The translations under genes and the position numbers were made by a program. Of a DNA stretch of 64,000 bases, positions 42,671 through 64,000 are shown piece after piece. The stretch covers positions 4,913-68,912 of the forward strand of contig JBAUWE010000166.1 in assembly GCA_049583595.1 (NCBI GenBank), written 5' to 3'. This DNA comes from Terriglobia bacterium (GTDB lineage: Bacteria > Acidobacteriota > Terriglobia > UBA7540). A model generated the notes under the pieces. The model searched no databases. It was not told where the DNA came from and was given only the letters and a program-made list of their open reading frames with translations. The number at the start of each line of letters is the position of its first letter. Position 1 is the stretch's first letter.

Positions 42671-42796
42671 CTTTCTATTCTGAACGCTATCGGCAGATCA
42701 ATTCAAGAGTTTGTGGCATCTGCCCTCGCAAATTTCCCCGCCACGCGCCGTGGCCGCGCTTGTAAAGCAGACTGCTTCTCAGGGGAAGCCCCCTTC

Positions 42797-43681
42797 TCAG
42801 ATGTGCACGGCCAGGACGGGACTGGTTCCCAACTGGATCACGCGTTGCGTTGTGGAGCCGAACAAGGCAAGGTCCACCGCGTTGCGGCCTCGCACTCCCA
42901 TCACCACAAGGTCGATCTCATTCTCAAGGGCAATCTGAAGAATCTCCTGGTAGGGCCTGCCGATGCGGACAGCAGCATGCACTTTGCACCAGTCGCCGGC
43001 TTCCGGCGGCGCCAGTTCCTCAAGCCTTCGGGTGACGTCACCCACGCACTTTTGCAGGTCATCAGTGGGAGGCACGTCTTCAAGAACGTGGAGCAGAGTG
43101 AGGTCCGCGTTGTACTCCATGGCCAGTGACAACGAGTAGGTAAGGGCGCGGGTCGAATAATCGGAAAAGTCCGTGCAAAAGAGAATCTTCTTCAGCCGCA
43201 CCGGCTCCTCGGCGTCCTCCGGATGGACGAAATCGTGGGCGGGCTTGCGAACCACCAGAACGGGACAATGGGCTTTCCTTAAAATTTTCTCGGTCACCGA
43301 TCCCATGGTCAGATGGTCAAACCCGTGGCGCCCGTGTGTTCCCATCACAATCAGATCGGCAGCCTGGCTTTCAGCGAAAGCCAGAATGCAATCCGGCACC
43401 GTTCCCTTGTGCACGAAACGCTGGATTTGAAATCCATTTCCCCGGCGCGCCGACATCAGGTCAGAAAGTTTCTGGTCGGTACTGGCTTCAAGGTTCCAGA
43501 AAACTTCGTTGATGGCGTCCGGAAAAGCGTAGTAGGGATAGGTGGAAGTCAGCGGTTGGATGACGTGCTGCAGCAGCAGTTTTGCGGCGTAATGCTGTGC
43601 CAATGACTGGGCGTATTCGTAAGCCTTGACAGAGTACTCAGAAAAGTCAACCGGGCAGAGAACCTTTTCGATTCTGAGCAT
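42797..43681 (-). CDS. tandem-domain universal stress protein
   Basis: ORF 42797..43819, start moved to ATG 43681 after GAGGAG. Two UspA domains, each ending ..GSVT/GSTT..PVLVV. Confidence 0.85.
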   Translation of the reverse strand: MLRIEKVLCPVDFSEYSVKAYEYAQSLAQHYAAKLLLQHVIQPLTSTYPYYAFPDAINEVFWNLEASTDQKLSDLMSARRGNGFQIQRFVHKGTVPDCILAFAESQAADLIVMGTHGRHGFDHLTMGSVTEKILRKAHCPVLVVRKPAHDFVHPEDAEEPVRLKKILFCTDFSDYSTRALTYSLSLAMEYNADLTLLHVLEDVPPTDDLQKCVGDVTRRLEELAPPEAGDWCKVHAAVRIGRPYQEILQIALENEIDLVVMGVRGRNAVDLALFGSTTQRVIQLGTSPVLAVHI

Positions 43682-43854
43682 CGCGGCTCCTCTCAAAAAA
43701 ACCGCTGGGAGGAGCGAGTCCCCGTCTTGCTGGGGCCGGCTGGCTTGCCTCTCCTGCCCAGAAGCTAACCTGCACTCCTCGCAGCTATCCCTCCCAGCAG
43801 ACGACAGGCTAACAAACACAGCGGCGCAATGCCGTGACCAGGGTTACCAGCGGT

Positions 43855-43870
43855 TGTGACCGTGCTCACA
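43855..43870 (+). promoter_or_regulatory. perfect CRP-type palindrome in the divergent USP intergenic region
   Basis: TGTGACCGTGCTCACA. GACAAT (-10-like) lies at 43892..43897, 32 bp from the site centre, oriented toward the USP gene at 44031. Confidence 0.5.
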
Positions 43871-44030
43871 GCCCCCATGCGTTCATGGCGGGACAATTAA
43901 AAAGGAGGATCCGGCCCGAAAGGAAAGATGGGGATCCGGGCAGGGTTCGCCATAGAGAGAGAGTCCCGCTTGCAGGCCTCCGGGTGCTCGCCAAAAACTT
44001 CCGTCGCCTGCGGCGGAAAAAGGAGCAAGC

Positions 44031-44535
44031 CATGGAAAAACCAAAAGTGATGGTTGCGTTGCGAGACACAGAAACAGCGGGTAGCCTGACCAAACTGGCC
44101 TGCCAGATGGCCAGTCTGGCGGGAACCACCGTGATCGCGTTGCACGTGATTGAGGTGCCGCCGGGTTTGCCCATCGACGTGATGGATCCCGTCTTCGAAC
44201 GGCCCGGACAACAGGTGCTCTCACTGGCCCGGCAGATTGCCTCCAACAATTTCTCCATGCACATCTCGGCGAAACTGCTGAAGGCGCGCAACGCCGGCGA
44301 AGCCATTGTGGGTGAAGCAGCAGAAGAGGAAATTGACCTGCTGGTCATCGGATACCACCACAATCACGGCCTTGCTGAAACGCTGCTGGGTTCCACGGTG
44401 CAGCACGTCACCCGCCATGCGCCGTGCAGGGTGCTGGTGCAGGTTCCCGCGCCCAGGTCGAAAGGCCAACCGGTTGCGGTGAGCGAGGAAGAGGCGGAGG
44501 AAGACGTCGAAACGAAGAAGCCGGAAGCCGCATAA
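44031..44535 (+). CDS. universal stress protein
   Basis: ORF 43834..44535, start moved to ATG 44031 after GGAGCAAGCC. UspA motifs (VIALHVIEVP.., GYHHNHG..LLGSTVQHVTRHAPCRVLV). Confidence 0.85.
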
Positions 44536-44643
44536 GAAACCAGAGCCCGCGGCGGCCACTTCTCTGGAACCGGACAAAGAATGGTGAAATGATAGGGAAC
44601 ACTCGACCGAGAATAATCTAACAGCGAATAAGGAGGAGTGGCG

Positions 44644-44916
44644 ATGCGGCTATCGGTAAAGGGTCTGGCCCTGGCAATCGGAATCCTGTGGGGTGGGTGT
44701 ATCCTCCTTGTGGGAATCGTGAACCTGATATCACCTTCCTACGGAGTGGCTTTTCTTCAGTGGGCAAGCTCAATCTATCCGGGCTTTCACAATTCGCACC
44801 ACTTTCTGGATACACTGGTCGGCGCAATCTACGGGCTGGTGGACGGAGGGATCGGAGGAGCGGTTCTGGGCCTGCTTTACAACTGTTTCGCCGGGGGCGC
44901 CAAACAGGCGTCCTGA
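44644..44916 (+). CDS. small membrane protein (2-3 TM), unknown function
   Basis: ATG 44644 lies 7 nt after AAGGAGGAG. Gly-rich hydrophobic helices. Confidence 0.5.
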   Translation: MRLSVKGLALAIGILWGGCILLVGIVNLISPSYGVAFLQWASSIYPGFHNSHHFLDTLVGAIYGLVDGGIGGAVLGLLYNCFAGGAKQAS

Positions 44917-45070
44917 TCCCGCTTATTGCGCGGGCCATGCGCAGCACGAGCTGAAGATTCACATCCAATGTGTGAAGGGAGGGGCCGGCTCTGCCGCTGG
45001 ATGAAGCGTTGCTCCAACCACCCGCAGGGACCGAAGCTTTCGATAAAACCCGGCGTTCATTTCAGGGTGA

Positions 45071-45412
45071 GTGAAACCCTGTCCTGACCGGCCGCTTGTC
45101 AACTCCTACGCAACAGCTTCGCGCGCTTTCAATGTCACCGTGAACAGAAGATTCAAACGCTGGCTGGTCATCATTTCCGGATGGAGCTTTGTCGCGCTGG
45201 GTGTGGCAGGCCTTTTTCTGCCCATTCTCCAGGGCGTTCTGTTCCTTCTGATCGGTTTAACCATCCTCTCCACGGAATACGTTTGGGCGCACAAGCTGCT
45301 CCAGAAATTGCGGAAGCGGTTCCCTTCCCTCACCAGCAGGTTTGATACAGCCAAATTGCGGGCCCACGCCTGGCTGAAGCGCGTTTTCCCTTCCAAGTCC
45401 GACGGCGTGTAG
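45071..45412 (+). CDS. small membrane protein, PGPGW/YbaN-like
   Basis: GTG start, uncertain. IISGWSFVALGVAGLFLPILQGVLFLLIGLTILS pattern resembles the PGPGW/DUF454 families. Confidence 0.45.
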   Translation: MKPCPDRPLVNSYATASRAFNVTVNRRFKRWLVIISGWSFVALGVAGLFLPILQGVLFLLIGLTILSTEYVWAHKLLQKLRKRFPSLTSRFDTAKLRAHAWLKRVFPSKSDGV

Positions 45413-45497
45413 CGCTGAAGCTGACGATTGCCGGCCGCCTGTATGGGGGGGGGCATCATCAGACACGACGATCCATACGGAGGTCGTCACAGGGTTT

Positions 45498-45513
45498 GGT
45501 GACGCAGCTCACC
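45498..45513 (+). promoter_or_regulatory. CRP-type palindrome, part of a 29-nt composite motif
   Basis: GGTGACGCAGCTCACC. It belongs to TCGTCACA-N7-GTGACGCAGCTCAC (45484..45512), which recurs at 50514..50542. CATCAT (-10-like) lies 32 bp from the centre. Confidence 0.45.
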
Positions 45514-45551
45514 GTAGAACAGACGAAACTGGACCATCATAAGTTATGGAA

Positions 45552-45663
45552 GGAGGGTGGACGCGGGCGAATAGGAAGCAAACCATAAACGGAGCACGGC
45601 GGCAGCAAACACGGAGCTCCGTAAGGCCAGCGACTTAACGCGGCCGATTCGCCCCCACCCTCC
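45552..45663 (+). ncRNA. candidate structured small RNA (long interrupted stem)
   Basis: GGAGGGTGG(acgc)GGGCGAAT at 45552..45572 pairs with ATTCGCCCCCACCCTCC at 45647..45663, giving 17 bp. Inner hairpin CGGAGC/GCTCCG. A second hairpin GCCCGAA-TTCC-TTCGGGC at 45678..45695. Lies in a 635-bp gene-free gap. The strand is inferred from the upstream promoter model only. Confidence 0.25.
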
Positions 45664-46047
45664 TGAGCACTCCTTGAGCCCGAATTCCTTCGGGCCTTCA
45701 TCTATCATCACCGTAAAGCCTGCCTTTCTTTATAGCCTTCAAGCGGGAATGGTATGTTAAATATATAGGTGTCCTGCCAAGGCATGGGGTACAAGCGTGG
45801 CTTGGGAAATAGAGGCGCGGTCCCTTCCAGACCTCGGGGGCCCGGCCTCACGTGGAAACGTCACACTCCCCCCGTTTAAGTGGCCGCAGTGTCCGCCTCA
45901 GCGGGCAGGATTCGCCACCTTTCGGAACTGTGTATTCCACGGTTCCGGCCGGAAGGCGGGCCAACCCTTTTTGCTGAACAGTTTTGCGAATGAAACCAGA
46001 CCTGAGCCTGCGTCGTCGAAGTTTCCAGGGCAAGCGATTCGTTTATA

Positions 46048-48525
46048 TTGCGCTGTTCCGCTCAGTTCGGGTCAGGACCGTTCAGGCGCGCCAGGATTAA
46101 CCAGCAAGAAGACGGGCAATTCTGCAACGATCACAAATTTCAGCAGCCCTTTGCACTCGAGGTAGCGGTGGCTTTGAACAACACTCCCGACCCCAGGAAC
46201 CTCCATTCGCATCCCGGCCAGACGGCCGCAAAACAGCCCGAGGTGAGCCAGAGAGAAACCCAGGCCCTCTTCGAACAGTTCTTTGAGGCGTCGCCTGACG
46301 GCGTCCTGGTGGTGAACTCGAAGGGTTTCATCACACGCGTGAACGCCCAGACAGAAAAAATGTTCGGGTACAGTCGCACAGAGTTGCAAGGCCAACCCAT
46401 CGAGGTCCTGGTTCCGGACCGTTTCCGGAAAGCACATGCAGAGTACCGCGGCAATTATCAGGACGAACCTCACATGCGCGCCATGGGCGCAGGACTGGAA
46501 CTGTTTGCCAAGCGCAGGGATGGAAGCGAATTCCCTGTTGAAATTATGCTGAGCCCCATTCGATCCGGTAAAGAATCGATGGTACTGACTGTGGTTCGCG
46601 ACATCACCCTGCGCAAGCAGGCGGAGGATGGTCTACGCACCAGCGAAGGGCAGCTCCAAAGCATTCTGGACAATTCAACCACCCTCATCTACGTCAAGGA
46701 CCTCGAAAGCCGCTATCTCCGCGTCAACCGCCGATTTGAAGAGCTTTACAACATCAAGAAGGGCCAGGCCAAAGGCAAAACCGATTACGACCTGTTCCCG
46801 AAAGAAATGGCGGAGAGCCTGAGGGCCAATGACCAGAAGGTTATTGAGGCCGGCGGCCCATTGGAATTTGAAGAAGTGGTCACCCACTCCGGCGGCATTC
46901 ACACCTACATTTCAATCAAGGTCCCTCTGTTTGACCCCCGGGGGCGGCCTTACGCAGTGGCCGGCATCTCCACCGACATTACAGAACGGAAGAAGGCCGA
47001 GGAAGCTTTGCTGCTGGAGATCAGCATGGTCCTTCTGGCGAACCTGGATGTTCGAGAGCTTTTCACCGCGATCTCGGCAACGCTTCGCCGGATCATGCCC
47101 CACGAGTACGCGTCGCTCGCTCTTTACGAGCCCGAAAGCAAGGATCTGCGTCTGCTTTCATTGGAACAGCCTGAAACGGAAACCACGCTCGGAAAAGAAA
47201 TGCTCTCACCTGCCCAGGAAGCCCTGGCGGGCCGCGTGATGAATTCCCGCCAGCAGCTGATCGTCAACGATCTTGAAAGCAGCCCCGCCAGATCCAAAGC
47301 CACCGACCGCCTGAGGACCGAAGGCGTGAAGTCCGCCTGCTTCCTGCCGCTCATCACGCAGGATCGCGTCCTTGGAACCCTGAACCTGGTGAGCCGGCAG
47401 AAAGGCGCGTTTGACCAGCAGCACGTCGATCTGCTTCAGCAGGTGACGGGCCACGTGGCCATCGCCCTGGACAACGCTCTCACTTACCGCAAAGTGGCTG
47501 AGCTGAAAGAACGGCTGGCTGAAGAGAAACTCTACCTGGAAGAAGAAATCCGCACTGAATATCATTTTGAGGAAATCATCGGCGAAAGCGGCGCCCTCAA
47601 GCGAATCCTGAAGCAGGTGGAATCCGTCGGCCCCACCAATGCCACCGTCCTGATTCTGGGCGAAACCGGTACCGGGAAGGAATTGATCGCGCGCGCCATT
47701 CACGATTTAAGTCCCCGTCGTGACCGCACTTTTGTCAAACTGAACTGTGCCGCCATACCCACAGGACTGCTGGAAAGCGAGCTGTTCGGACACGAAAAGG
47801 GGGCCTTTACCGGCGCCATCTCGCAAAAGATCGGCCGGCTGGAACTGGCCCACCAGGGAACCCTCTTCCTGGATGAGGTGGGGGACATCCCCCTTGAGCT
47901 TCAGCCCAAGCTGCTACGGGCCATTCAGGAGAAGGAATTCGAACGGCTGGGCAGTACGAGAACGATCCCTGTAGATGTTCGTCTGCTTGCGGCAACCAAC
48001 CGCGACCTAACCAGGATGGTCGCCGACCGGCAGTTCCGCAGCGACCTTTATTACCGCCTCAAGGTCTTCCCTATCACCGTTCCTCCTTTGCGGGAGCGCG
48101 CCGAAGATATTCCTATCCTGGTCCGATACTTTGCCCAGAAACATGCTGAGAGAATGCACCGGCGCTTCGAGATTATCCCACCCGAGGTCATGGAGGCGCT
48201 CACCCGCTGGCACTGGCCCGGCAACGTGCGAGAACTTGAGAATATTATCGAGCGAGCCGTCATCCTTTCTCCCGGGCCGGTTTTGCGGATTCCGCTTGCG
48301 GAACTGTCGCCCGCCGAGAGCGAAAAAGGTAACGGTCGTGGCTCCGGGACCCTGGAAGACGCCGAACGCGAACACATCCTCCGCATCCTGAGAGAGACTC
48401 GCGGAATCATCGGCGGTCCCAACGGAGCAGCTGCCCGCCTGGGGCTGAAGCGAACGACGCTGAATTCCAAGATGCGGAAGTTGGGAATTACACGGGAAGA
48501 GATCGGAAAAACGCCTTCTTCGTGA
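46048..48525 (+). CDS. sigma54-dependent transcriptional activator (PAS-PAS-GAF-AAA+-Fis HTH)
   Basis: Two PAS domains and a GAF domain. AAA+ module with GETGTGKE and the diagnostic ESELFGHEKGAFTGA motif. C-terminal HTH AARLGLKRTTLNSKMRKLGI. The start is uncertain (TTG 46048 or GTG 46168). Confidence 0.9.
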   Translation: MRCSAQFGSGPFRRARINQQEDGQFCNDHKFQQPFALEVAVALNNTPDPRNLHSHPGQTAAKQPEVSQRETQALFEQFFEASPDGVLVVNSKGFITRVNAQTEKMFGYSRTELQGQPIEVLVPDRFRKAHAEYRGNYQDEPHMRAMGAGLELFAKRRDGSEFPVEIMLSPIRSGKESMVLTVVRDITLRKQAEDGLRTSEGQLQSILDNSTTLIYVKDLESRYLRVNRRFEELYNIKKGQAKGKTDYDLFPKEMAESLRANDQKVIEAGGPLEFEEVVTHSGGIHTYISIKVPLFDPRGRPYAVAGISTDITERKKAEEALLLEISMVLLANLDVRELFTAISATLRRIMPHEYASLALYEPESKDLRLLSLEQPETETTLGKEMLSPAQEALAGRVMNSRQQLIVNDLESSPARSKATDRLRTEGVKSACFLPLITQDRVLGTLNLVSRQKGAFDQQHVDLLQQVTGHVAIALDNALTYRKVAELKERLAEEKLYLEEEIRTEYHFEEIIGESGALKRILKQVESVGPTNATVLILGETGTGKELIARAIHDLSPRRDRTFVKLNCAAIPTGLLESELFGHEKGAFTGAISQKIGRLELAHQGTLFLDEVGDIPLELQPKLLRAIQEKEFERLGSTRTIPVDVRLLAATNRDLTRMVADRQFRSDLYYRLKVFPITVPPLRERAEDIPILVRYFAQKHAERMHRRFEIIPPEVMEALTRWHWPGNVRELENIIERAVILSPGPVLRIPLAELSPAESEKGNGRGSGTLEDAEREHILRILRETRGIIGGPNGAAARLGLKRTTLNSKMRKLGITREEIGKTPSS

Positions 48526-49356: not shown

Positions 49357-49653
49357 ATGCTTAAAATAACGTTTAAGGACACGCCGGGGAGTACAAAAGT
49401 GAAACTGGAAGGTAGGCTTGCCGGACCGTGGGTCGAAGAGCTGGAGCGGAGTTGGACAGAACACTCGCCTCAAGCTTCTGAAAATGTCATAATAGATTTA
49501 TCGGATGTGACCTACATTGACCCTGAAGGGAAAAGACTCTTGGCCCGCATGGTAGACAAGGGGTTCTGCTTCGAGGGAACGAACTTAATGACAAAATATG
49601 TAATTGATGAAATTACACGTGTTGGAATACGTTCGGGTAGGAACGGAGGTTAA
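49357..49653 (+). CDS. STAS-domain protein (anti-sigma-factor-antagonist-like)
   Basis: 98 aa. ..VKLEGRLAGPWVEELE...VIIDLSDVTYIDPEGKRLL.. is a typical STAS/SpoIIAA-like pattern. Its stop lies 1 nt before the next start. Confidence 0.7.
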   Translation: MLKITFKDTPGSTKVKLEGRLAGPWVEELERSWTEHSPQASENVIIDLSDVTYIDPEGKRLLARMVDKGFCFEGTNLMTKYVIDEITRVGIRSGRNGG

Positions 49654-49654
49654 G

Positions 49655-50371
49655 ATGAGATCGCCATACGGATTGGAACTGGTCGAAGATTGCCACACCT
49701 GCTCGAACAAGGCCGACGGGTTCTTTTGTGATCTTTCTCCGGAAGGACTGAAAGCATTCGAGGCGATCAAGTACACGACTGCGTATCCCTCTGGCGCGGT
49801 GCTGTTTGTGGAAGGACAATCCGCCCAGGGTGTTTTTCTGCTCTGCAAAGGCCGCGTGAAGATCTCAATGACCTCCGCCGAAGGCAAGACACTGATTCTG
49901 AGAATCGTTAAGCCGGGAGAAATCCTGGGATTGCATGCGACGGTTTCTGACACTGCTTTTCAGGCCACCGCTGAAACTCTGGAGCCCTGCCAGGTGAACT
50001 TCATCAAACGCGACGACTTCCTGCGTCTGCTTCGGGACCATGGAGACGCCTCCATCCACGCGGCGCAGCAGTTGAGCGGCAGTTATCAGACCGCGTGCGA
50101 GCAGGTGCGCTCACTGGGTCTTTCACAGTCAGCGCCGGAAAAGCTGGCCCGCTTCCTGCTGGATTGGTCGTCTAAAGGGCAGTCTTCCAATCAGGGAATC
50201 CGGGTGAAACTCACGCTGACTCACGAGGAGATCGGCCAGATCATTGGAACTTCCCGGGAAACCGTGACGCGCACGCTGAGCGAATTCAAGTCCAAGCACC
50301 TTGCCGAGCTGAAGGGCTCGACCCTGGTGATCCAGAACAAGACCGCACTCGAAGCTTTCCTGGGCGGCTAG
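49655..50371 (+). CDS. Crp/Fnr-family transcriptional regulator
   Basis: ORF 49604..50371, start moved to ATG 49655 after GGAGG. cNMP-binding-like beta-roll (GAVLFVEGQSAQGVFLLCKGRVKIS). HTH with recognition helix SRETVTRTL, the R-E-x-x-x-R pattern seen in CRP. N-terminal C-x2-C-x8-C. Confidence 0.88.
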   Translation: MRSPYGLELVEDCHTCSNKADGFFCDLSPEGLKAFEAIKYTTAYPSGAVLFVEGQSAQGVFLLCKGRVKISMTSAEGKTLILRIVKPGEILGLHATVSDTAFQATAETLEPCQVNFIKRDDFLRLLRDHGDASIHAAQQLSGSYQTACEQVRSLGLSQSAPEKLARFLLDWSSKGQSSNQGIRVKLTLTHEEIGQIIGTSRETVTRTLSEFKSKHLAELKGSTLVIQNKTALEAFLGG

Positions 50372-51645: not shown

Positions 51646-52662
51646 TCAGTAGTGGCCTTCCTCCAGCCGCACCTTGCCGTGGAACACGCGGTGAACGTAA
51701 GTGCTGTAAACGACCACGGCCATCATGCCAAAAGCATTGGCAATCAGGGACACGCGCAGAGCATGAGGTGAAGAAGCAGCGTTGTATATGTCCAGGCTGT
51801 ACTGCGGCTGAACGGTAGAAGGAAGAAGGTTTGGAAACACCGTCAGCGCAGCGGTCAGCATCAGGGCGACGACGAGCAGCACCGAAGACCGGAAGGCGGC
51901 GTTGCTGCGGTCCGCCCCGCGTGACAAAAAGCCCCAAACCAATGCCACCAGAATAAAAAAGGGTATCACCCATGCCGCAGGATGAACCTGGAACGTGCGC
52001 GGACTGCCGGAAAGGACAATAAACGTGGCGATCGTAACCACAATCACCATCGCCACCGTGACCCACCACAGCGTGCGCGACCACCTGACGGCCCTCTCGA
52101 ACAGCGCGCCCTCTGTCTTGACCCGCAGGTAATTCGATCCGTGCCAGGCCAGGACCACCACGCTCAGAATACCCGTGAGCAGCGCATAGGGGTTCAGCAT
52201 CAGGGCAAACGTTCCCTGGAAATATCCGTCCGCGCCGATCGGCAAGCCGCGCACCACGTTCCCCAGGGCAACGCCCAGCAGCAAAGCCAGCAGGATGCTG
52301 CCGACCCAGAAACCGCCGTCCCAGAGCGTCCGCCACAGGGGATTTTTGGACTGGCTTCGAAACTCAATGGAAACACCGCGCAGGATCAGCAGCCAGAGCA
52401 CCAGCATTAAAGCCAGGTAAAAACCGCTGAAAGCCACGGCATAAACCCGCGGGAACGACACCACCATCATGCCTCCGGCGGCCAACAGCCAGACTTCATT
52501 GCCGTTCCAGACAGGCCCGATGGAATTGAGCGCCAGGCGCCGCTCATCATCGGTTTTTGCAATCCAGAGCGACATGGATCCAACTCCCAAATCATATCCG
52601 TCCAGCACGGCGTAAGCTGTTAACATCGCTCCAAGCACCCAAAACCAGATTGCGTTCATCAC
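51646..52662 (-). CDS. cydB: cytochrome bd ubiquinol oxidase subunit II
   Basis: 338 aa. N-terminus WFWVLGAMLTAYAVLDGYDLGVG is a CydB hallmark. 8-9 TM helices. Confidence 0.92.
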   Translation of the reverse strand: MMNAIWFWVLGAMLTAYAVLDGYDLGVGSMSLWIAKTDDERRLALNSIGPVWNGNEVWLLAAGGMMVVSFPRVYAVAFSGFYLALMLVLWLLILRGVSIEFRSQSKNPLWRTLWDGGFWVGSILLALLLGVALGNVVRGLPIGADGYFQGTFALMLNPYALLTGILSVVVLAWHGSNYLRVKTEGALFERAVRWSRTLWWVTVAMVIVVTIATFIVLSGSPRTFQVHPAAWVIPFFILVALVWGFLSRGADRSNAAFRSSVLLVVALMLTAALTVFPNLLPSTVQPQYSLDIYNAASSPHALRVSLIANAFGMMAVVVYSTYVHRVFHGKVRLEEGHY

Positions 52663-52757
52663 TCAGAACCTCCATCGGCAGGAATCGTTTCGAATGGTTC
52701 CTGCAACACGCCGGCCCGTGGCCGCGGCTGCTTTCTGTTAGTCCATCCGCCAAGGCG

Positions 52758-54092
52758 CTAGGCCTGCGCCGCTGTGTTTTCGTGCGGCCCGTGGTGGATG
52801 ATGCGAGCCACAAGGAACAGGAAAAGAATGCCCAGCATGGCATAAATTCCGGCAAACCCCATCGTGGTGAAGATGGTTTCTCCGGCGGCAACGTTGGCGG
52901 AAGTTCCCGCCGGCGTTTTCATCAGTCCATACACCAGCCAGGGCTGCCGGCCCACTTCAGAAACCAGCCACCCGGCCTCATTGGCAATATACGGAAAAGG
53001 AATGGTGAGCATCAGCATCCACAGGAACCAGCGGTTGGAGTGAAGCTTGCGCCTCCACAGAAGGAACAGGCCGATCAGCATCTGGGCGATAAAGATGGTT
53101 CCCAGCCCCACCATGATGTGATAGCAGTAATAAGTGAGTTCAACGGGCGGCCAGAGGTCCCTGGGATAGCTGTTCAGCCCGTCGACGGTAGCGCGAAAAT
53201 TGCCATAGGCCAGGAAGCTGAGAAATTCCGGAACGTAGATGGGATCAATCAGCTTGCCGGTTTGCGTATCCGGCATTCCGACAATGGCCAGCGGCGCGCC
53301 CTGCTCGGTTTCAAAAAGGCCTTCCATAGCGGCAAGCTTGGTGGGCTGGTATTTCACCACGCTGGCTCCGTTCAAGTCTCCGGTGGGAAACAATTGAGTC
53401 AGCGAAAGAATCACTCCGGCCACAATCGCCGTCTTCACGGACAACATGCCGAACTCCCGGTGACGGTCCGACAGAAGATAGAAGGCGCCAATGCCGCCGA
53501 TCACAAAAGCCGCTGTCAGCAACGACCCGTTGATGGTGTGGGCATATTGCCAGATGGCGTAAGGATTCAGCAGCACCGCCCAGAACGATTTCAACCGGAT
53601 GGCGCCGGAGGGGTCCATCACATAGCCCACCGGGTGCTGCATCCAGGCGTTGGTGGCAACAATAAAATATCCTGACAGCAGGGACCCGCCGGCCACGCCG
53701 AGGCCTGAAATCCAGTGGAGAGTCCTGCCCACGCGCTTCTCGCCCGCCAGAAACATCCCCAGAAATCCGGACTCCAGAAAGAACGCGTAGACGCCTTCCA
53801 GCGGCAGCGTCTGCCCGAAAACGCCGCCGCCAAAACTTGAGAAGCGACTCCAGTTGGTACCGAACTCAAACTCCAGCGGAATGCCTGAAACAACTCCCAG
53901 GGCAAAATTGACGGCAAAGATCTTGGCCCAGAACTGGGCCGCGTCGGCATAGCGTCTTTCCTTTGTCAGCAAGTGAAGGGTTGAAAAAAGGGCGATGAAA
54001 AAGCCCAGTCCCATGGTCAGAATGGGAAAAAGGTAGTGAAACATCACCGTGAAAGCGAACTGAATGCGGTGGGCAAAAACAGCTTCGTTCAT
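52758..54092 (-). CDS. cydA: cytochrome bd ubiquinol oxidase subunit I
   Basis: ORF 52758..54236, start moved to ATG 54092 after GGAGGG. Typical CydA motifs: RIQFAFTVMFHYLFP, a short Q-loop region and GWLVSEVGRQPW. Confidence 0.92.
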   Translation of the reverse strand: MNEAVFAHRIQFAFTVMFHYLFPILTMGLGFFIALFSTLHLLTKERRYADAAQFWAKIFAVNFALGVVSGIPLEFEFGTNWSRFSSFGGGVFGQTLPLEGVYAFFLESGFLGMFLAGEKRVGRTLHWISGLGVAGGSLLSGYFIVATNAWMQHPVGYVMDPSGAIRLKSFWAVLLNPYAIWQYAHTINGSLLTAAFVIGGIGAFYLLSDRHREFGMLSVKTAIVAGVILSLTQLFPTGDLNGASVVKYQPTKLAAMEGLFETEQGAPLAIVGMPDTQTGKLIDPIYVPEFLSFLAYGNFRATVDGLNSYPRDLWPPVELTYYCYHIMVGLGTIFIAQMLIGLFLLWRRKLHSNRWFLWMLMLTIPFPYIANEAGWLVSEVGRQPWLVYGLMKTPAGTSANVAAGETIFTTMGFAGIYAMLGILFLFLVARIIHHGPHENTAAQA

Positions 54093-54248
54093 AGACCCTC
54101 CCTCGGGCAGATACGGACCACGTTGGCAGCGCACGCCGGCGCCGTGAAGAGAAGAGGCCGTCGATCCAAGGGCAGGCTGGATAAAACCAACTGCCTGCCC
54201 CGGCGCGCTCCGGAAAGTGGGGGACCGGCCTGCCACCTTAACGCTGCT

Positions 54249-55484
54249 CTAATCCAAAAATCGGTGCTTATCCTGACCTGCAAGCCGCCAGCATTCCTGA
54301 GCAATCGCCCACTCTTCGCGCGCCGCCACCACAACCACGTGGACGGCGGAATCCGGACTTGCGATGTCGCAATCGACAGGCGACTCGTCGTTCTTCCGCC
54401 GGTCGAGCTTGAGGCCAAGAAATTCAAAGCCGGAGCAGGCTGCGGCGCGCACCTCAGGCGAGTTCTCGCCGATGCCACCTGTAAAGGCCAGCGCATCGAT
54501 GCCGCCGAGCGAAGCCGCCATGGCTCCCACAAATTTCCGCAACCAGTGAATAAACGTATCAAAAGCCAGGCTGGCGCGGGCGTTTCCGCTTTCGACGGCG
54601 GAGAGGATTTGCCGCATGTCGTCAGACACACCCGACACTCCCAGCAGGCCGGACTCGCGGTTCAGGAGTTCCTCCAGCCGGTCAGCGGAATACTTTTCTT
54701 CCCGCAGCAGATGAATGAAAATTCCGGGGTCGATGCTGCCGCTGCGGCTGCCCATCATCAGTCCTTCGAGGGGCGTGAAACCCATCGTCGTATCCACGCT
54801 GTGCCCATTCCGCACCGCAGCCAGCGAACAACCGTGACCCAGGTGACAGGTGACAATCCGCAACGATTCGAGATCCTTGCCCAGAATCCGGGCCGTGCGC
54901 CTGGCGCAGTACTGGTGGCTGATGCCGTGAAAACCGTAGCGGCGAATGCCCCGCTCGTACCAGGCGTAAGGGCCGGGGTAGATCAAGGCGTGCTTCGGGA
55001 GGGTCCGGTGAAACGCCGTGTCAAAAACAGCCACCTGAGGCCGCGACTTGAAAATCTGCTCGGCCGTGTCAATGCCGCTGACCTCGGCAGGATTGTGCTC
55101 CGGAGCAAACGCCGCGAGGCGGCTGATCTCCTGCTTCACCTCAGCCGTCACCCGCGTGGGCGCTGAATATTTCTCGCCCCCATGAACAACGCGATGGCCC
55201 ACCATATCCACTTCTTCCGGATGGGCAAGAACACGCGCCGGACCTTCCCAGAGAGTCTGCAACAATTGGCCGGCGGCCGCACTTTCCGAATCAATTCCGG
55301 GCTGCTCGTCCATCACCGGACGGCCCTCGCGCCTGACCCTTAGCCGCACATTCCCGAACGGCTCTTCCCATTCCACGTGCCCTTCCCATAACGGGACAGG
55401 CGGCGTTTGGGGCAGGGATTCCGCCAGCTCGTAGAGGCAACTCTTCAGGCTGCTTGAGCCCGCGTTGAGCACCAGGACTTTCAT
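54249..55484 (-). CDS. ackA: acetate kinase
   Basis: MKVLVLNAGSSSLK N-terminus, then ..RRYGFHGISH.. and ..GGIGENS.. motifs. Confidence 0.92.
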   Translation of the reverse strand: MKVLVLNAGSSSLKSCLYELAESLPQTPPVPLWEGHVEWEEPFGNVRLRVRREGRPVMDEQPGIDSESAAAGQLLQTLWEGPARVLAHPEEVDMVGHRVVHGGEKYSAPTRVTAEVKQEISRLAAFAPEHNPAEVSGIDTAEQIFKSRPQVAVFDTAFHRTLPKHALIYPGPYAWYERGIRRYGFHGISHQYCARRTARILGKDLESLRIVTCHLGHGCSLAAVRNGHSVDTTMGFTPLEGLMMGSRSGSIDPGIFIHLLREEKYSADRLEELLNRESGLLGVSGVSDDMRQILSAVESGNARASLAFDTFIHWLRKFVGAMAASLGGIDALAFTGGIGENSPEVRAAACSGFEFLGLKLDRRKNDESPVDCDIASPDSAVHVVVVAAREEWAIAQECWRLAGQDKHRFLD

Positions 55485-57398: not shown

Positions 57399-58226
57399 TT
57401 ACCGCCGGAAAGAAAACAGCGTGAGCAGAAGCAGAATAAAGCCGGTGGCGATGGCGGCAAAGCCCACAACCATTCCGAACGTCACGAACCATCGTTGGGG
57501 TTCCCCTGCACGGAAGCTCTCAAGTTTTCCCTGCTCCACGAGCCGTTCGTACTCCTCGGGATGCTTTTCGGCCAATTCTGTTTCCGTCTGGCGCCCGGTG
57601 AAAATCACTTTATCCATCGGGAAGCTGCCGGGGCGCAAGTGAGTATTGAAAAAGTGAATCGTGAAAATGAACCACACCGCCAGCAGCGCCTCGTCGCCAT
57701 GAAGAAGCAGCGCAACGTTAAACCACGAGCCCGGCACAAATCTGGCCACAAAGGGGGCAAACCACATGCTATAGCCGGAGAGCCCAATGACACCCATGCC
57801 CCAGAAGACAGCCCAATAATCGAACTTCTCCCAGTAGGCAAAGCGATCGAATTTCGGTTTGGGACCCAGTCCAAAGAACCAGCGAAAATGCGCTCCCATT
57901 TGAGCAAGGTCCTTGGGCTGCGGCACAAGGGATTCGGGCCCCCAAAGCATCCCAAACTTTCTTTTGACAAAAACCTGGCGGAAAATGTTCCCCACATGAA
58001 AAAGAAATGCCGCCGTCAGCAAGACACCAAAGGCTTTGTGGAAAAAGAGAATGGCGCCAAACCCTCCCACCGCGTGCGCAAAGCCGGACGCCCAGGCGGC
58101 ATAACTGAAGCGAAGCGTCAGGCCGGTCAGCGCCAGGCCCAGAAAAGTGGAGAACAGGGTCGCGTGAAGCAACCGCTTGCCTGGGGAAAACCGATAGTAA
58201 TAGCGGACCTGCTCCCCTTGATTCAA
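57399..58226 (-). CDS. membrane b-type cytochrome (FdnI/HydC, Ni_hydr_CYTB-like)
   Basis: 275 aa. TTG start lies after GAGGTGAAG and 18 nt after the upstream stop. Four or more TM helices with conserved His (RLLHATL.., LFFHKAF.., LLLHGDE.., TIHFFNTHLRP). Confidence 0.7.
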   Translation of the reverse strand: MNQGEQVRYYYRFSPGKRLLHATLFSTFLGLALTGLTLRFSYAAWASGFAHAVGGFGAILFFHKAFGVLLTAAFLFHVGNIFRQVFVKRKFGMLWGPESLVPQPKDLAQMGAHFRWFFGLGPKPKFDRFAYWEKFDYWAVFWGMGVIGLSGYSMWFAPFVARFVPGSWFNVALLLHGDEALLAVWFIFTIHFFNTHLRPGSFPMDKVIFTGRQTETELAEKHPEEYERLVEQGKLESFRAGEPQRWFVTFGMVVGFAAIATGFILLLLTLFSFRR

Positions 58227-59489: not shown

Positions 59490-59771
59490 TCATCCCGGTA
59501 ATTTGGCGCCTTGCTGCCACACGTAATACAGGTACATGACTCCAATCAACAGACCGTAAGCCACCACGAGGGCCGTCAGGATCTTGCCCCACCGCTCGAT
59601 GACTTCCAGTTTATGGCTGAGCTTAACCTGGGCGGCAACTTGTGGCGCGTCACCGTCCAGCACATGAATCGATTCGTCTTCGTGGCTGGCCATCATATTC
59701 CGGTAGATGGCCAACACACCAACCACCACCACAAGAGGTATCCATGTTGCAAGATAAAACGTGAGGTTCAT
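59490..59771 (-). CDS. 93-aa two-TM membrane protein, unknown function
   Basis: ORF 59490..59789. ATG 59771 lies 5 nt after GGAGG. Two hydrophobic helices flank an acidic loop. Confidence 0.5.
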   Translation of the reverse strand: MNLTFYLATWIPLVVVVGVLAIYRNMMASHEDESIHVLDGDAPQVAAQVKLSHKLEVIERWGKILTALVVAYGLLIGVMYLYYVWQQGAKLPG

Positions 59772-59825: not shown

Positions 59826-60059
59826 CTACTTCTTGCCTTCCTTGGCCGCAGATTCACAAGCCTTCAGATTCTTCTTCTTTGCATAGCACTTGCCCACATC
59901 GTTCAGTTCTTTCTGGCCCATTTTCACATGGCATGTATTGCACGAGACCTTCTCCTTCTTGGCAATCTTCATGTTGCCAAAGGAAGTGAGAGAAGACATC
60001 GCGAGAGCCACGCCCAAGGTGATACCGAATACTATAAGTTTCCTGATGGTGCTCATCAT
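59826..60059 (-). CDS. 77-aa Lys-rich mini monoheme cytochrome c, exported
   Basis: ORF 59826..60077. ATG 60059 lies 5 nt after GGAGG. Signal peptide. Single CNTCH motif and three additional Cys. The mature part is very Lys-rich. Confidence 0.55.
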   Translation of the reverse strand: MMSTIRKLIVFGITLGVALAMSSLTSFGNMKIAKKEKVSCNTCHVKMGQKELNDVGKCYAKKKNLKACESAAKEGKK

Positions 60060-60111
60060 TACGACCTCCGGACTCAACGAACAGGTGATGGCGTCTTTCC
60101 TGAATCGGGTT

Positions 60112-60459
60112 CTATTTCTTCTTACCTAGCTGGCGAATGTATGCTACCAGGCCGTTAATTTCATCCTTCGAGAACTGGCTGCCGTAGGCCGGCATGACTC
60201 CTTTGCCCTTGGCGATGATATTGTGAAGATCGGCGTCTGATTTCGACTGCACAGCCTTCGAGCGCAGGTCGGGAACCTTCATGCTTTTCCCCATGGGACT
60301 GTTCCCGCTGCCGTCCTTGGCATGGCACATCACGCACTTGGCATCAAACGTGGGCTGGCCGCTCTTGGCCTGCACCTGATAGGCAGGCGTCAGAAGCCAT
60401 GCGCCGGCCATCAGCGCTGAGAAGACCGCAAGTGCTGCGGTGTTAACGACCTTATTCAT
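60112..60459 (-). CDS. class I monoheme c-type cytochrome, periplasmic
   Basis: ORF 60112..60465. ATG 60459 follows AAGGAGGAAG. Signal peptide. CVMCH plus a distal Met in ..KGKGVMPAY.., typical of c551/c6-like cytochromes. Confidence 0.85.
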   Translation of the reverse strand: MNKVVNTAALAVFSALMAGAWLLTPAYQVQAKSGQPTFDAKCVMCHAKDGSGNSPMGKSMKVPDLRSKAVQSKSDADLHNIIAKGKGVMPAYGSQFSKDEINGLVAYIRQLGKKK

Positions 60460-60553
60460 TATCACTTCCTCCTTCGTGGCATCCCTTATTAAGAAACACG
60501 TGCCTCTATATCATCTCTTGTTTCAGGTCAGATTTCAACCGGCCATGCTTTCG

Positions 60554-62562: not shown

Positions 62563-63957
62563 TTATTTCAGCAGGAACTCATCAAAGTTCGATCCATGGA
62601 CCGCCACGTGGCAGCGTGTGCAGGGTCCAGAACCCTGGTAGCCACCCCGGCCGTGTGGTACGTTCGCCTGGCCGTGGAAGCCCGACGTGCCATGAATGGC
62701 GGAGTGGCACTGCAGGCAGAGCAGCCGCTGCTCACGGCGCTTCAGCAGGAAGTTGTTCACGCTTCCGTGCGGAGAGTGGCAAGCCGTGCAGCCTTCAACT
62801 CTCACGACTGCGTGCTCATAGACAAACGGCCCGCGCTTTTCCACGTGGCATTTGACGCAGCTCTCCCAATTCGCTTGCGTAAGCTGGTGGTGATTCATGG
62901 TGCCGTGCGGGTTATGGCAATCGGTACACTTCATGAAGCCCTCGGGAACCCGGTGATGCTCCGGCAATGCGAATTGCGCTTGCACAGTCCGGTGGCACCC
63001 GAAGCAAAGCTCAGGTTGCGGCTTCTTCAACAGGCCGTCATTCAGCCAGGCATTTTCCTCTTTCAGCCTTGGCACAGAGAAAAACGATGCCTGCGCGGGC
63101 TGGAGCGCGGGCTTCCCGGCATCCGCCACCTCAACCGGATGGATGCTATGGCAGTCCATACAACTGACTCCTGCCGTCGCATGAACCGAGTGCTGGAAAG
63201 CATCCTGCGGTGTCCCTGTCTGGTGGCACTGCATGCACCGCGCGGAGTTGTCCTTGGGGTTGGCGTCAAACTTGAAGATGAGCTTCATGCCCGCTTCCAT
63301 CTTGGCAACATCGCCAGCCGCATTCTGCTCAGCATTGGCGTGGGCGGCGCCCGGCCCGTGGCAGATCTCGCATCCCGTCACGTGCTGTGGCCCGGAGGGC
63401 GGCGGAGTTTGCGCCGATTCGTTCTGGTCCTGTCCCTTCAACGTCATCAGGTAATCAACAAGCTCGTTGAGGTTCTGGGTAGGGGTGTGCGGGGGAAGCG
63501 TGGGCATGATGGTTCCGGCCCGCCGCTTCAGCATCCGGTCCATCAACTCCTGGCGGGTCCTGCGCGCGCCCACGTCACCCAGGGCCGGGCCGGCTGTGCC
63601 GCCCTTGCCGCCAATCTGGTGACATCCCGCGCACATCATGTCGGTATAAAGCTTCCTGCCCGCCGCAACGGAGGGCGACTCCGCCGCTCCGGGGGAAGCC
63701 GGCGTGGCCTCGACCGCCCCGCCCTGTTCACCATGAGGCGACTTGAAAAATTGCCGGGCCTCCGCACGGTGGCAGCCCGCGCAAACCTGGGGACCAACAT
63801 AATCATTCGGATTGGTCTCCACAGGCGGCGTCCAGGCAACCGATGGCCCCTTGGCAGGGGCTGGCCGCCTTTGGGCGTAGAGAAATGCCGTGGGCAAAAA
63901 TCCAGCCAGGCAGATCAGCAACGCGGCGGTTTTGATGAAACTCAGCAGTCGCTTCAT
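62563..63957 (-). CDS. MtrA/DmsE-family-like multiheme c-type cytochrome, 11 CXXCH (decaheme core + inserted class I heme domain)
   Basis: ORF 62563..63990. ATG 63957 (MKRLLSF..) gives a signal peptide. Eleven CXXCH motifs. The C-terminal ..CTRCHVAVHGSNFDEFL resembles the DmsE/MtrA-family ending. Lies directly upstream of the barrel gene. Confidence 0.8.
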   Translation of the reverse strand: MKRLLSFIKTAALLICLAGFLPTAFLYAQRRPAPAKGPSVAWTPPVETNPNDYVGPQVCAGCHRAEARQFFKSPHGEQGGAVEATPASPGAAESPSVAAGRKLYTDMMCAGCHQIGGKGGTAGPALGDVGARRTRQELMDRMLKRRAGTIMPTLPPHTPTQNLNELVDYLMTLKGQDQNESAQTPPPSGPQHVTGCEICHGPGAAHANAEQNAAGDVAKMEAGMKLIFKFDANPKDNSARCMQCHQTGTPQDAFQHSVHATAGVSCMDCHSIHPVEVADAGKPALQPAQASFFSVPRLKEENAWLNDGLLKKPQPELCFGCHRTVQAQFALPEHHRVPEGFMKCTDCHNPHGTMNHHQLTQANWESCVKCHVEKRGPFVYEHAVVRVEGCTACHSPHGSVNNFLLKRREQRLLCLQCHSAIHGTSGFHGQANVPHGRGGYQGSGPCTRCHVAVHGSNFDEFLLK

Positions 63958-64000
63958 GTCGCTCTCCCCTCTTTCACATTCGTTAACCATTGAATTCCTC

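Follow-up and report, generated by a model that had tools for sequence, protein, structure and literature searches.

A gene at the very end of a 64,000-nucleotide stretch of DNA from a Terriglobia bacterium (assembly GCA_049583595.1, contig JBAUWE010000166.1, positions 4,913 to 68,912 of the forward strand; the whole stretch is hereafter called the window) raises the question of why a multiheme cytochrome of the MtrA/DmsE type should contain, between its first and second heme motifs, a segment of about 80 residues resembling a small soluble cytochrome c. A previous inspection of the letters, referred to here as the sequence-only reading, had described this segment as a class I, c551-like heme domain nested inside the multiheme protein and had proposed that it acts as a high-potential entry or exit point for electrons, in agreement with an Fe(II)-oxidizing direction. 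We have analyzed whether the segment is really a class I domain and an insertion, how it is distributed among the relatives of the protein, and which function could be assigned to it. The segment is a true insertion of a class I cytochrome c domain, it appears to be functional, and it probably serves to exchange electrons at the periplasmic end of the conduit.

The residues are numbered here according to the longest open reading frame (ORF) of the gene, although the true start is likely the ATG at 63957 (Met12), which has a GAGGGGAG Shine-Dalgarno just 5' of it and yields the N-terminus MKRLL that is also found in several homologues. The protein has a signal peptide and, thus, it should be periplasmic. 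It contains 11 CXXCH motifs, at residues 70, 120, 207, 252, 277, 329, 355, 378, 401, 425, and 457, and no CX3-4CH motif. The whole protein reaches 211 bits, in two stretches, with the NCBIfam model TIGR03508 of DmsE-family decaheme cytochromes, whose curated cut-off is 192.2, and its best solved relative is MtrA from the MtrCAB complex of Shewanella baltica (PDB 6r2q_A, E=4.3e-31), the residues of hemes 2-10 being colinear with MtrA residues 94-326. The ten CXXCH motifs of the core are conserved and 12 His residues outside the motifs are invariant in alignment A1, which is the pattern of the bis-His hemes of the MtrA/DmsE type. The model TIGR03507, that describes the outer-surface cytochromes of the MtrC/OmcA/UndA type, did not match the protein at E<=1, and the score obtained for ExtS, 33 bits, stays well below its cut-off of 100.

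The identity of the inserted segment is supported by profile and structural comparisons. The peptide from which it was noticed (GRKLYTDMMCAGCHQIGGKGG..GPALGDVG..RAGTIMPTLP..LVDYLMTLKG) is indeed present between VCAGCH (heme 1) and GCEICH, and residues 108-185 match the two Pfam models that had been suggested for its recognition, i.e., Cytochrom_C (PF00034; 38.3 bits, cut-off 21.3, E=3.5e-9) and Cytochrome_CBB3 (PF13442; 27.8 bits, cut-off 27). The limits previously given, residues ~95-175, are counted from Met12 and correspond to residues 106-186 in the numbering used here. The AlphaFold2 (AF2) model of residues 96-192 alone (predicted local distance difference test, pLDDT, of 75; predicted template modeling score, pTM, of 0.71) shows the class I helix pattern, with helices at positions 11-23, 45-59, and 76-87 of the model (residues 106-118, 140-154, and 171-182 of the protein). 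When this model was compared with the PDB using Foldseek, the top 50 matches were all class I cytochromes (probability 0.87-1.0; query TM-scores 0.43-0.68), including NorC, XoxG, SorU, c553, c6, c551, c552, SoxX, and the cytochrome c domains of caa3 and cd1. The term c551-like is correct for the fold and not for the subfamily, as the NCBIfam c551 model (NF045774) gives 18.2-21.8 bits against a cut-off of 118, and the domain is a generic class I/CBB3-type cytochrome c. The eleven CXXCH motifs counted in the protein also bear out the increase of the heme number from 10 to 11.

The alignment with the 10-heme relatives demonstrates that the class I segment was genuinely inserted between MtrA hemes 1 and 2. 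Close relatives of 351-376 aa, 64-80% identical over the aligned columns, are devoid of exactly this segment, and in the alignment with them the stretch from the heme-1 to the heme-2 motif is interrupted by a single clean gap of ~100 columns. Moreover, the 10-heme relative P0027 is colinear with MtrA over hemes 1-2, with an MtrA-like spacing of the two motifs, which are 132 residues apart in the query. Among the matches listed from the genome-representative set there are 80 loci, mostly from Acidobacteriota (Bryobacteraceae, Terriglobia, Pyrinomonadaceae, and others); they are 10-heme homologues only, and hence they inform about the ancestral state and not about the number or the taxa of the carriers. 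The linker between hemes 1 and 2 measures 22-35 aa in every one of the ~75 decaheme genes recovered from these loci, and the syntenic 10-heme orthologues fall in the same range. The class I segment is found in none of the 80 loci, so that the short linker is the ancestral condition and the domain is derived. The clean gap, together with the matches to TIGR03508 and MtrA, corroborates the proposed nesting of the domain inside an MtrA/DmsE-type decaheme cytochrome.

The carriers of the domain form a narrow group. An exhaustive search over 1.84 billion 50%-identity representatives yielded one full-length carrier (P0001) and two fragments, followed by 10-heme proteins of 50-55% identity; the 11-heme family is roughly one 50%-identity cluster. 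The segment is therefore conserved in a single narrow clade and absent from the wider family, as expected for an insertion and not for an ordinary part of these cytochromes. Within that clade, the same 11-heme architecture is found in about a hundred 90%-identity clusters (JGI, ENA, NCBI, and Logan), and an independent Logan contig holds the identical gene. Thus, the insertion is not an assembly artifact. In alignment A2, the class I segment is present in 102 of the 121 sequences.

Nine residues of the segment (C120, C123, H124, G128, G130, G131, G159, M162, and P163) are invariant in the 102 carriers. No further His is conserved in the segment among them, so that Met162, in the Met-Pro pair that had been pointed out as distal, is the sole plausible sixth ligand of the heme. 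The ratio of nonsynonymous to synonymous substitution rates (dN/dS) between the window and the related locus L083 is 0.076 for the class I domain and 0.097 for the decaheme core, and between the window and the more distant locus L082, where dS is near saturation, it is 0.117 and 0.141, respectively. The invariant key residues and a dN/dS like that of the core indicate that the domain is functional and under purifying selection. The sequence of both linkers evolves fast and their length is tightly kept; in the full-length AF2 model the block means of pLDDT in the N-terminal linker are 58-67, and residues 189-201 of the C-terminal linker fall below 50.

The domain is not present in all the close orthologues. 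The 11-heme protein P0009 (locus L083) and the 10-heme protein P0108 (locus L085, from an NCBI metagenome-assembled genome, MAG) are encoded in loci that have the same gene order as the window. This shared order comprises a response regulator, a 122-aa gene, a small gene, the cytochrome, the porin, and a 116-aa cytochrome c, then a 76-aa monoheme protein, a 93-aa membrane protein, and an inner-membrane cytochrome unit, and finally a 487-aa NapC/NirT protein, acetate kinase, cydAB, and a Crp-type regulator, with acetate kinase present in L085 and in the window and missing in L083. In addition, P0036 equals its sister P0011 minus the domain, by an in-frame deletion that keeps the outer stubs of both linkers, which points clearly to a secondary loss. 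Three more types of junction without the domain were found among the close relatives. In a neighbor-joining tree of the shared C-terminal region, the 10-heme forms appear at several places within the 11-heme clade, and they may have arisen either by losing the domain independently or by exchange with decaheme alleles. The flank of heme 1 (residues 63-86) is 62-67% identical to the query in the 10-heme orthologues, whose core is 83-86% identical, and 79-88% identical in 11-heme relatives with a core identity of 85-89%. This additional divergence could be due to co-adaptation of the flank with the domain or to a recombination tract.

Concerning the origin of the module, the class I cytochrome encoded two genes downstream (117 aa) was considered as a source of the insert and discarded, since it is only 22% identical to it, compared with the 44-48% identity shared by the insert and three of the four tandem class I domains of P0210. 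P0210 is a protein of 688 aa, encoded outside the window, that contains four tandem class I domains joined by Ala/Pro/Ser-rich linkers, two transmembrane (TM) segments, and a NapC/NirT tetraheme domain. The insert and the P0210 domains share the pattern CxxCH-IGG-GG..GP-L...MP-LP...DYL, and their linkers are alike. P0210 looks like an inner-membrane quinol dehydrogenase provided with a string of tethered monoheme modules, so the same module would also serve such an enzyme as a tethered extension into the periplasm. We can speculate that the module is a portable tethered shuttle placed on both ends of the periplasmic gap, i.e., on the MtrA-like wire and on the NapC/NirT protein, a proposal that we regard as quite a long shot. 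If true, electrons would cross the periplasm between tethered modules and not via freely diffusing cytochromes, and the natural 10-heme and 11-heme orthologues would be the diffusive and the tethered versions of one pathway.

The positions of the features described in the cytochrome gene and of its neighbors are collected in Table 1.

Table 1. Features of the 11-heme cytochrome gene and of the neighboring genes (positions of the window; residues of the longest ORF).
Feature	Position	Strand	Basis or remarks
11-heme MtrA/DmsE-family cytochrome, 475-aa longest ORF	62563..63990	minus	TIGR03508, MtrA 6r2q_A match
Predicted Sec signal peptide, residues 12-39 (MKRLLSF...AFLYA, followed by QRRP)	63874..63957	minus	Hydrophobic residues 14-32; cleavage site inferred
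Heme-1 CXXCH (C70-H74) of the decaheme core	63769..63783	minus	Aligns with MtrA CLMCH via the 10-heme relative P0027
Conserved distal His86 of heme 1	63733-63735	minus	Alignment
N-terminal linker, residues 87-105, Ala/Pro/Ser-rich	63676..63732	minus	Median length 20 aa (range 17-22) in 96 homologues; A/P/S/G-rich
Inserted class I cytochrome c domain, residues 106-186 (81 aa)	63433..63675	minus	PF00034 and PF13442, AF2, Foldseek
Class I CXXCH (C120-A-G-C-H124), 11th heme site	63619..63633	minus	102/102 carriers; checked against DNA
Met162-Pro163, predicted distal (sixth) heme ligand motif	63502..63507	minus	102/102 carriers; checked against DNA; ligation inferred
C-terminal linker, residues 187-203, Ala/Pro/Thr-rich	63382..63432	minus	15-19 aa (median 18)
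Decaheme core, hemes 2-10, residues 204-475	62566..63381	minus	9 CXXCH and distal His invariant
Putative outer-membrane beta-barrel porin, 664 aa	60554..62548	minus	Signal peptide, C-terminal Phe, adjoins cytochrome
Class I monoheme cytochrome c, 117 aa, c6/c552/CcoP-like, GVMP	60112..60465	minus	PF13442 57 bits; PDB c-552, CcoP, c6
Small secreted monoheme protein, 76-83 aa, single CNTCH, Lys-rich C-terminus	59826..60077	minus	Conserved in L083 and L085
93-aa ORF, two TM-like hydrophobic stretches	59490..59771	minus	Orthologues in L083 and L085; no family match
11-heme cytochrome, 404 aa, C-terminal TM segment	58245..59459	minus	Split CbcL-like unit with the next gene
Membrane b-type cytochrome, 275 aa, Ni_hydr_CYTB/FdnI-like	57399..58226	minus	Profile match
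NrfH/NapC-type multiheme quinol dehydrogenase, 490 aa	55657..57129	minus	PF03264; TIGR03153 partial match
Acetate kinase	54249-55484	minus	Window context
Cytochrome bd (cydAB)	51646-54236	minus	Window context; also in L083 and L085
Crp-family (cNMP-binding) regulator	49604-50371	minus	Window context; also in L083 and L085

The window ends 10 bases upstream of the cytochrome gene, and Rfam and tRNA scans of the window gave no matches. A 465-aa ORF on the plus strand (62596-63993) spans the entire cytochrome gene; it is unsupported and most likely a mechanical by-product of GC-rich coding DNA. The putative porin adjoins the cytochrome in the four related loci L001, L082, L083, and L085, and in the distant L082 the conserved core is the cytochrome-porin pair alone. 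At E<=1 the porin gave no match to the families of Pfam and NCBIfam, and it has none among the sequences of the PDB, including MtrB. The 117-aa class I cytochrome is conserved in L083, L085, and L001, and the small CNTCH protein encoded next to it, for which there is no Pfam family match, may be a minimal monoheme carrier. The genes for the 404-aa multiheme cytochrome and the 275-aa b-type cytochrome encode a split CbcL-like unit. Its counterpart in L083 (14611-16329) is a CbcL-like protein of 572 aa in which a 9-heme cytochrome is fused to a cytochrome b, and the counterpart in L085 (14176-15099) is a 307-aa protein with a single CXXCH. The 490-aa NrfH/NapC protein contains five CXXCH, one CX3CH, and three N-terminal TM-like segments, an architecture reminiscent of ImcH, and its counterparts in the syntenic loci share 81-87% identity with it.

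None of the loci L001, L082, L083, and L085 showed a MtrC-like surface cytochrome. The order decaheme, porin, monoheme cytochrome c, and inner-membrane cytochrome, without MtrC, which is that of the Mto type, is found in the window, L001, L083, and L085. L001 (9950-13950, from a Bryobacteraceae MAG) is the closest locus among the genome-representative matches listed, with 56% identity in the cytochrome and 48% in the porin, and it presents a Mto-like layout consisting of a 10-heme cytochrome, a porin, a 106-aa monoheme protein, and a 208-aa triheme membrane protein. Farther away, the region 39890-48525 of the window encodes, besides a tandem universal stress protein, an ADP-forming acyl-CoA synthetase of 926 aa with a fused GNAT acetyltransferase (Pat-like) and a sigma-54 activator of 825 aa that contains PAS and GAF sensor domains.

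The function of the domain can be discussed on the basis of the orientation of MtrA, whose heme 1 is the periplasm-facing end (PMC12203936). The gene would encode the MtrA/DmsE-type wire, running from the periplasm to the surface, of a porin-cytochrome conduit encoded by two genes in an Acidobacteriota (Terriglobia-like) host. Since the insert is placed between the heme-1 and heme-2 motifs, and heme 1 faces the periplasm, it would loop out at the periplasmic tip. There, the 81-aa domain would bind the 11th heme, most likely through His124 and Met162, and the Ala/Pro-rich linkers, of about 20 and 18 aa, would tether it on either side; the location of this heme at the tip is the one expected by homology with MtrA. 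In this way, the domain could behave as a built-in adaptor or shuttle coupling the bis-His chain to periplasmic or inner-membrane partners, the candidates being the 117-aa cytochrome c, the small monoheme protein, and the CbcL-like and ImcH-like quinol dehydrogenases. We consider with moderate confidence that the domain is a tethered periplasmic electron-exchange relay at the tip of the wire, and the orientation of heme 1 makes the entry or exit point envisaged by the sequence-only reading a reasonable idea. The best biochemical precedent for this role is PmcA from Sideroxydans, a His/Met monoheme cytochrome that interacts with MtoA and with the inner-membrane protein ImoA (PMC13390432). The tandem modules of P0210 also fit the use of the domain as a tethered periplasmic carrier. 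Several observations weigh against a relay. The domain is dispensable in nature, as shown by the syntenic orthologues without it and by the clean in-frame deletion of P0036. The full-length AF2 model is poor (pLDDT 57, with the C-terminal half below 50), does not contain the hemes, and gives no placement of the 11th heme with respect to heme 1. Finally, the domain has a basic pI of about 9.8 and so does the neighboring 117-aa cytochrome (about 9.7), values that do not point to any evident electrostatic pairing between them.

The argument that the 11th heme should have a high potential, and hence that the conduit oxidizes Fe(II), is not supported by the comparison with the Mto system of Sideroxydans, where the His/Met heme of PmcA has a potential of -143 mV and the bis-His heme of MtoD one of +155 mV (PMC13390432). 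Therefore, His/Met ligation does not fix the potential. In its complete form, this explanation states that a high-potential His/Met heme at the periplasmic end pulls electrons inward, so that the conduit would be used for the oxidation of Fe(II) or minerals, delivering the electrons to acceptors of high potential like cytochrome c and terminal oxidases. The location of the insert at the periplasmic end is compatible with it, and so are the absence of a MtrC-like protein and a gene order like mtoAB-mtoD-cymA, a two-component Mto/Pio-like layout that would fit electron uptake; the conduits of Fe(II) oxidizers generally lack the C subunit (10.1101/695007). Furthermore, PioA, a MtrA homologue involved in Fe(II) oxidation, titrates from -400 to +250 mV, a range that a study cited in PMC12203936 ascribes to His/Met hemes, and it can be taken as a counter-example that would favor high-potential His/Met hemes. 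However, the -143 mV of PmcA were obtained precisely in a model Fe(II) oxidizer, and the neighbors of the cytochrome gene are quinol-linked (CbcL-like, NrfH/ImcH-like, and cytochrome bd) and accompanied by acetate kinase. No gene for a cbb3/caa3 oxidase, a bc1 complex, or carbon fixation was found among the scanned ORFs of the window (39890-64000). Besides, porin-cytochrome clusters of Acidobacteriota in peat have been read as systems for outward electron transfer (2026 preprint, 10.64898/2026.05.27.727921), and the orthologues work without the domain. Taken together, we find Fe(II) oxidation an unlikely explanation for the insertion, and the presence of quinol dehydrogenases, cytochrome bd, acetate kinase, and the Crp regulator slightly favors outward or bidirectional transfer by a heterotroph.

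The domain might also play a role other than that of a relay at the periplasmic mouth of the porin, such as redox or ligand sensing, gating or rectifying the electron flow, protection against reactive oxygen species, or a contribution to assembling or plugging the cytochrome in the barrel. In favor of this, the domain is optional among orthologues whose remaining cluster is unchanged, and the lower identity of the heme-1 flank in the 10-heme forms hints at a local structural coupling. Nevertheless, the strict conservation of the heme-attachment site and of the Met-Pro motif and the low dN/dS fit a redox-active heme, the nearest structural relatives (NorC, SorU, c6, c553, caa3, and cd1) are all electron carriers or domains through which electrons enter oxidoreductases, and the same module occurs in tandem on the quinol dehydrogenase P0210, all of which makes a non-relay function rather improbable. 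Even less credit can be given to the idea that the insertion is an evolutionary accident, a neutral accretion on its way to loss. The domain has been cleanly lost at least once (P0036 versus P0011), and this loss and the three other domain-less junctions of close relatives speak for it. However, the domain has been kept, with invariant key residues, in a clade whose members are down to about 55% identity, and it shows the same low dN/dS as the core, in contrast to its drifting linkers, so an accident is very hard to reconcile with the data. A tethered electron-exchange relay is, thus, the function that we prefer for the domain.

When compared with known systems, the query shares with the MtrA/DmsE family (MtrCAB from Shewanella, 6R2Q) the same order of ten CXXCH and distal His, the adjacent porin, and the signal peptide. 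It differs in that MtrA and the ~75 listed homologues have only the short connection between hemes 1 and 2, in place of which the query has the class I domain, two linkers, and 11 hemes. Unlike in MtrCAB, the related loci have no MtrC-like partner and the porin has no detectable sequence similarity to MtrB or PioB. In this respect the cluster resembles the Mto system of Sideroxydans lithotrophicus ES-1 and PioAB of Rhodopseudomonas palustris, which are two-component conduits without a surface MtrC, and its order of decaheme, porin, class I monoheme, and inner-membrane multiheme cytochromes is like that of MtoAB-MtoD/PmcA-CymA(ImoA). The partners of MtoA were revised in 2026. In the Mto pathway, a separate His/Met monoheme protein, PmcA, interacts by docking with MtoA as well as with the partner in the inner membrane (PMC13390432). 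Unlike Mto and Pio, the query has a class I heme covalently included in the decaheme protein in addition to a separately encoded class I cytochrome. The N-terminal extension of PioA, unlike the query insert, is heme-free. The host also differs, since it has a heterotroph-like Acidobacteriota genome and is not a known Fe(II) oxidizer.

MtrA homologues of Acidobacteria were noted earlier (PMC3669403), and the clusters called EET2 of Bryobacterales (10.64898/2026.05.27.727921) belong to the same phylum and also contain a DmsE-family cytochrome beside a porin without a conserved domain, which has been modeled as a 26-strand MtrB-like barrel. EET2 differs from the query cluster in combining a 10-heme DmsE homologue with a 10-heme MtrC-like and a 4-heme TsdA-like cytochrome, and an inserted monoheme domain is not mentioned in the main text of that preprint or in the supplements searched. 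The inserted domain has the same fold, with the CXXCH...Met-Pro arrangement, as NorC, subunit II of caa3, the N-terminal domain of the cd1 protein NirS, CcoP, and SorU/SoxX. In these proteins, however, the class I domain is terminal or a separate subunit and constitutes an electron entry point, whereas that of the query is nested between adjacent heme motifs. The undecaheme cytochromes UndA, OccP, UetJ, and OmhA also bear eleven c-type hemes and are linked to extracellular electron transfer, but they are extracellular MtrC/OmcA-type proteins or long heme wires, outside the MtrA family and without a class I domain; an identity of the query with UndA, OccP, or UetJ was discarded on the basis of their published descriptions.

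A class I domain nested in a MtrA-family protein was not mentioned in the literature searched by full text, and the 11-heme MtrA-like protein is an undescribed variant within a known family and not a new kind of system. As Acidobacteriota abound in soils and peat and the cataloging of their electron-transfer clusters has only just begun, the variant is relevant for annotation and for iron-cycle gene surveys of this phylum. The orthologous loci that differ essentially by the domain, together with the clean natural deletion, offer a ready comparison to study the rate, the direction, and the partner specificity of the transfer. The way in which electrons pass between these conduits and the periplasm is still debated, and compared with systems such as Mto, where the monoheme carrier is a separate protein, the query represents a natural fusion of such a carrier to the tip of the wire.

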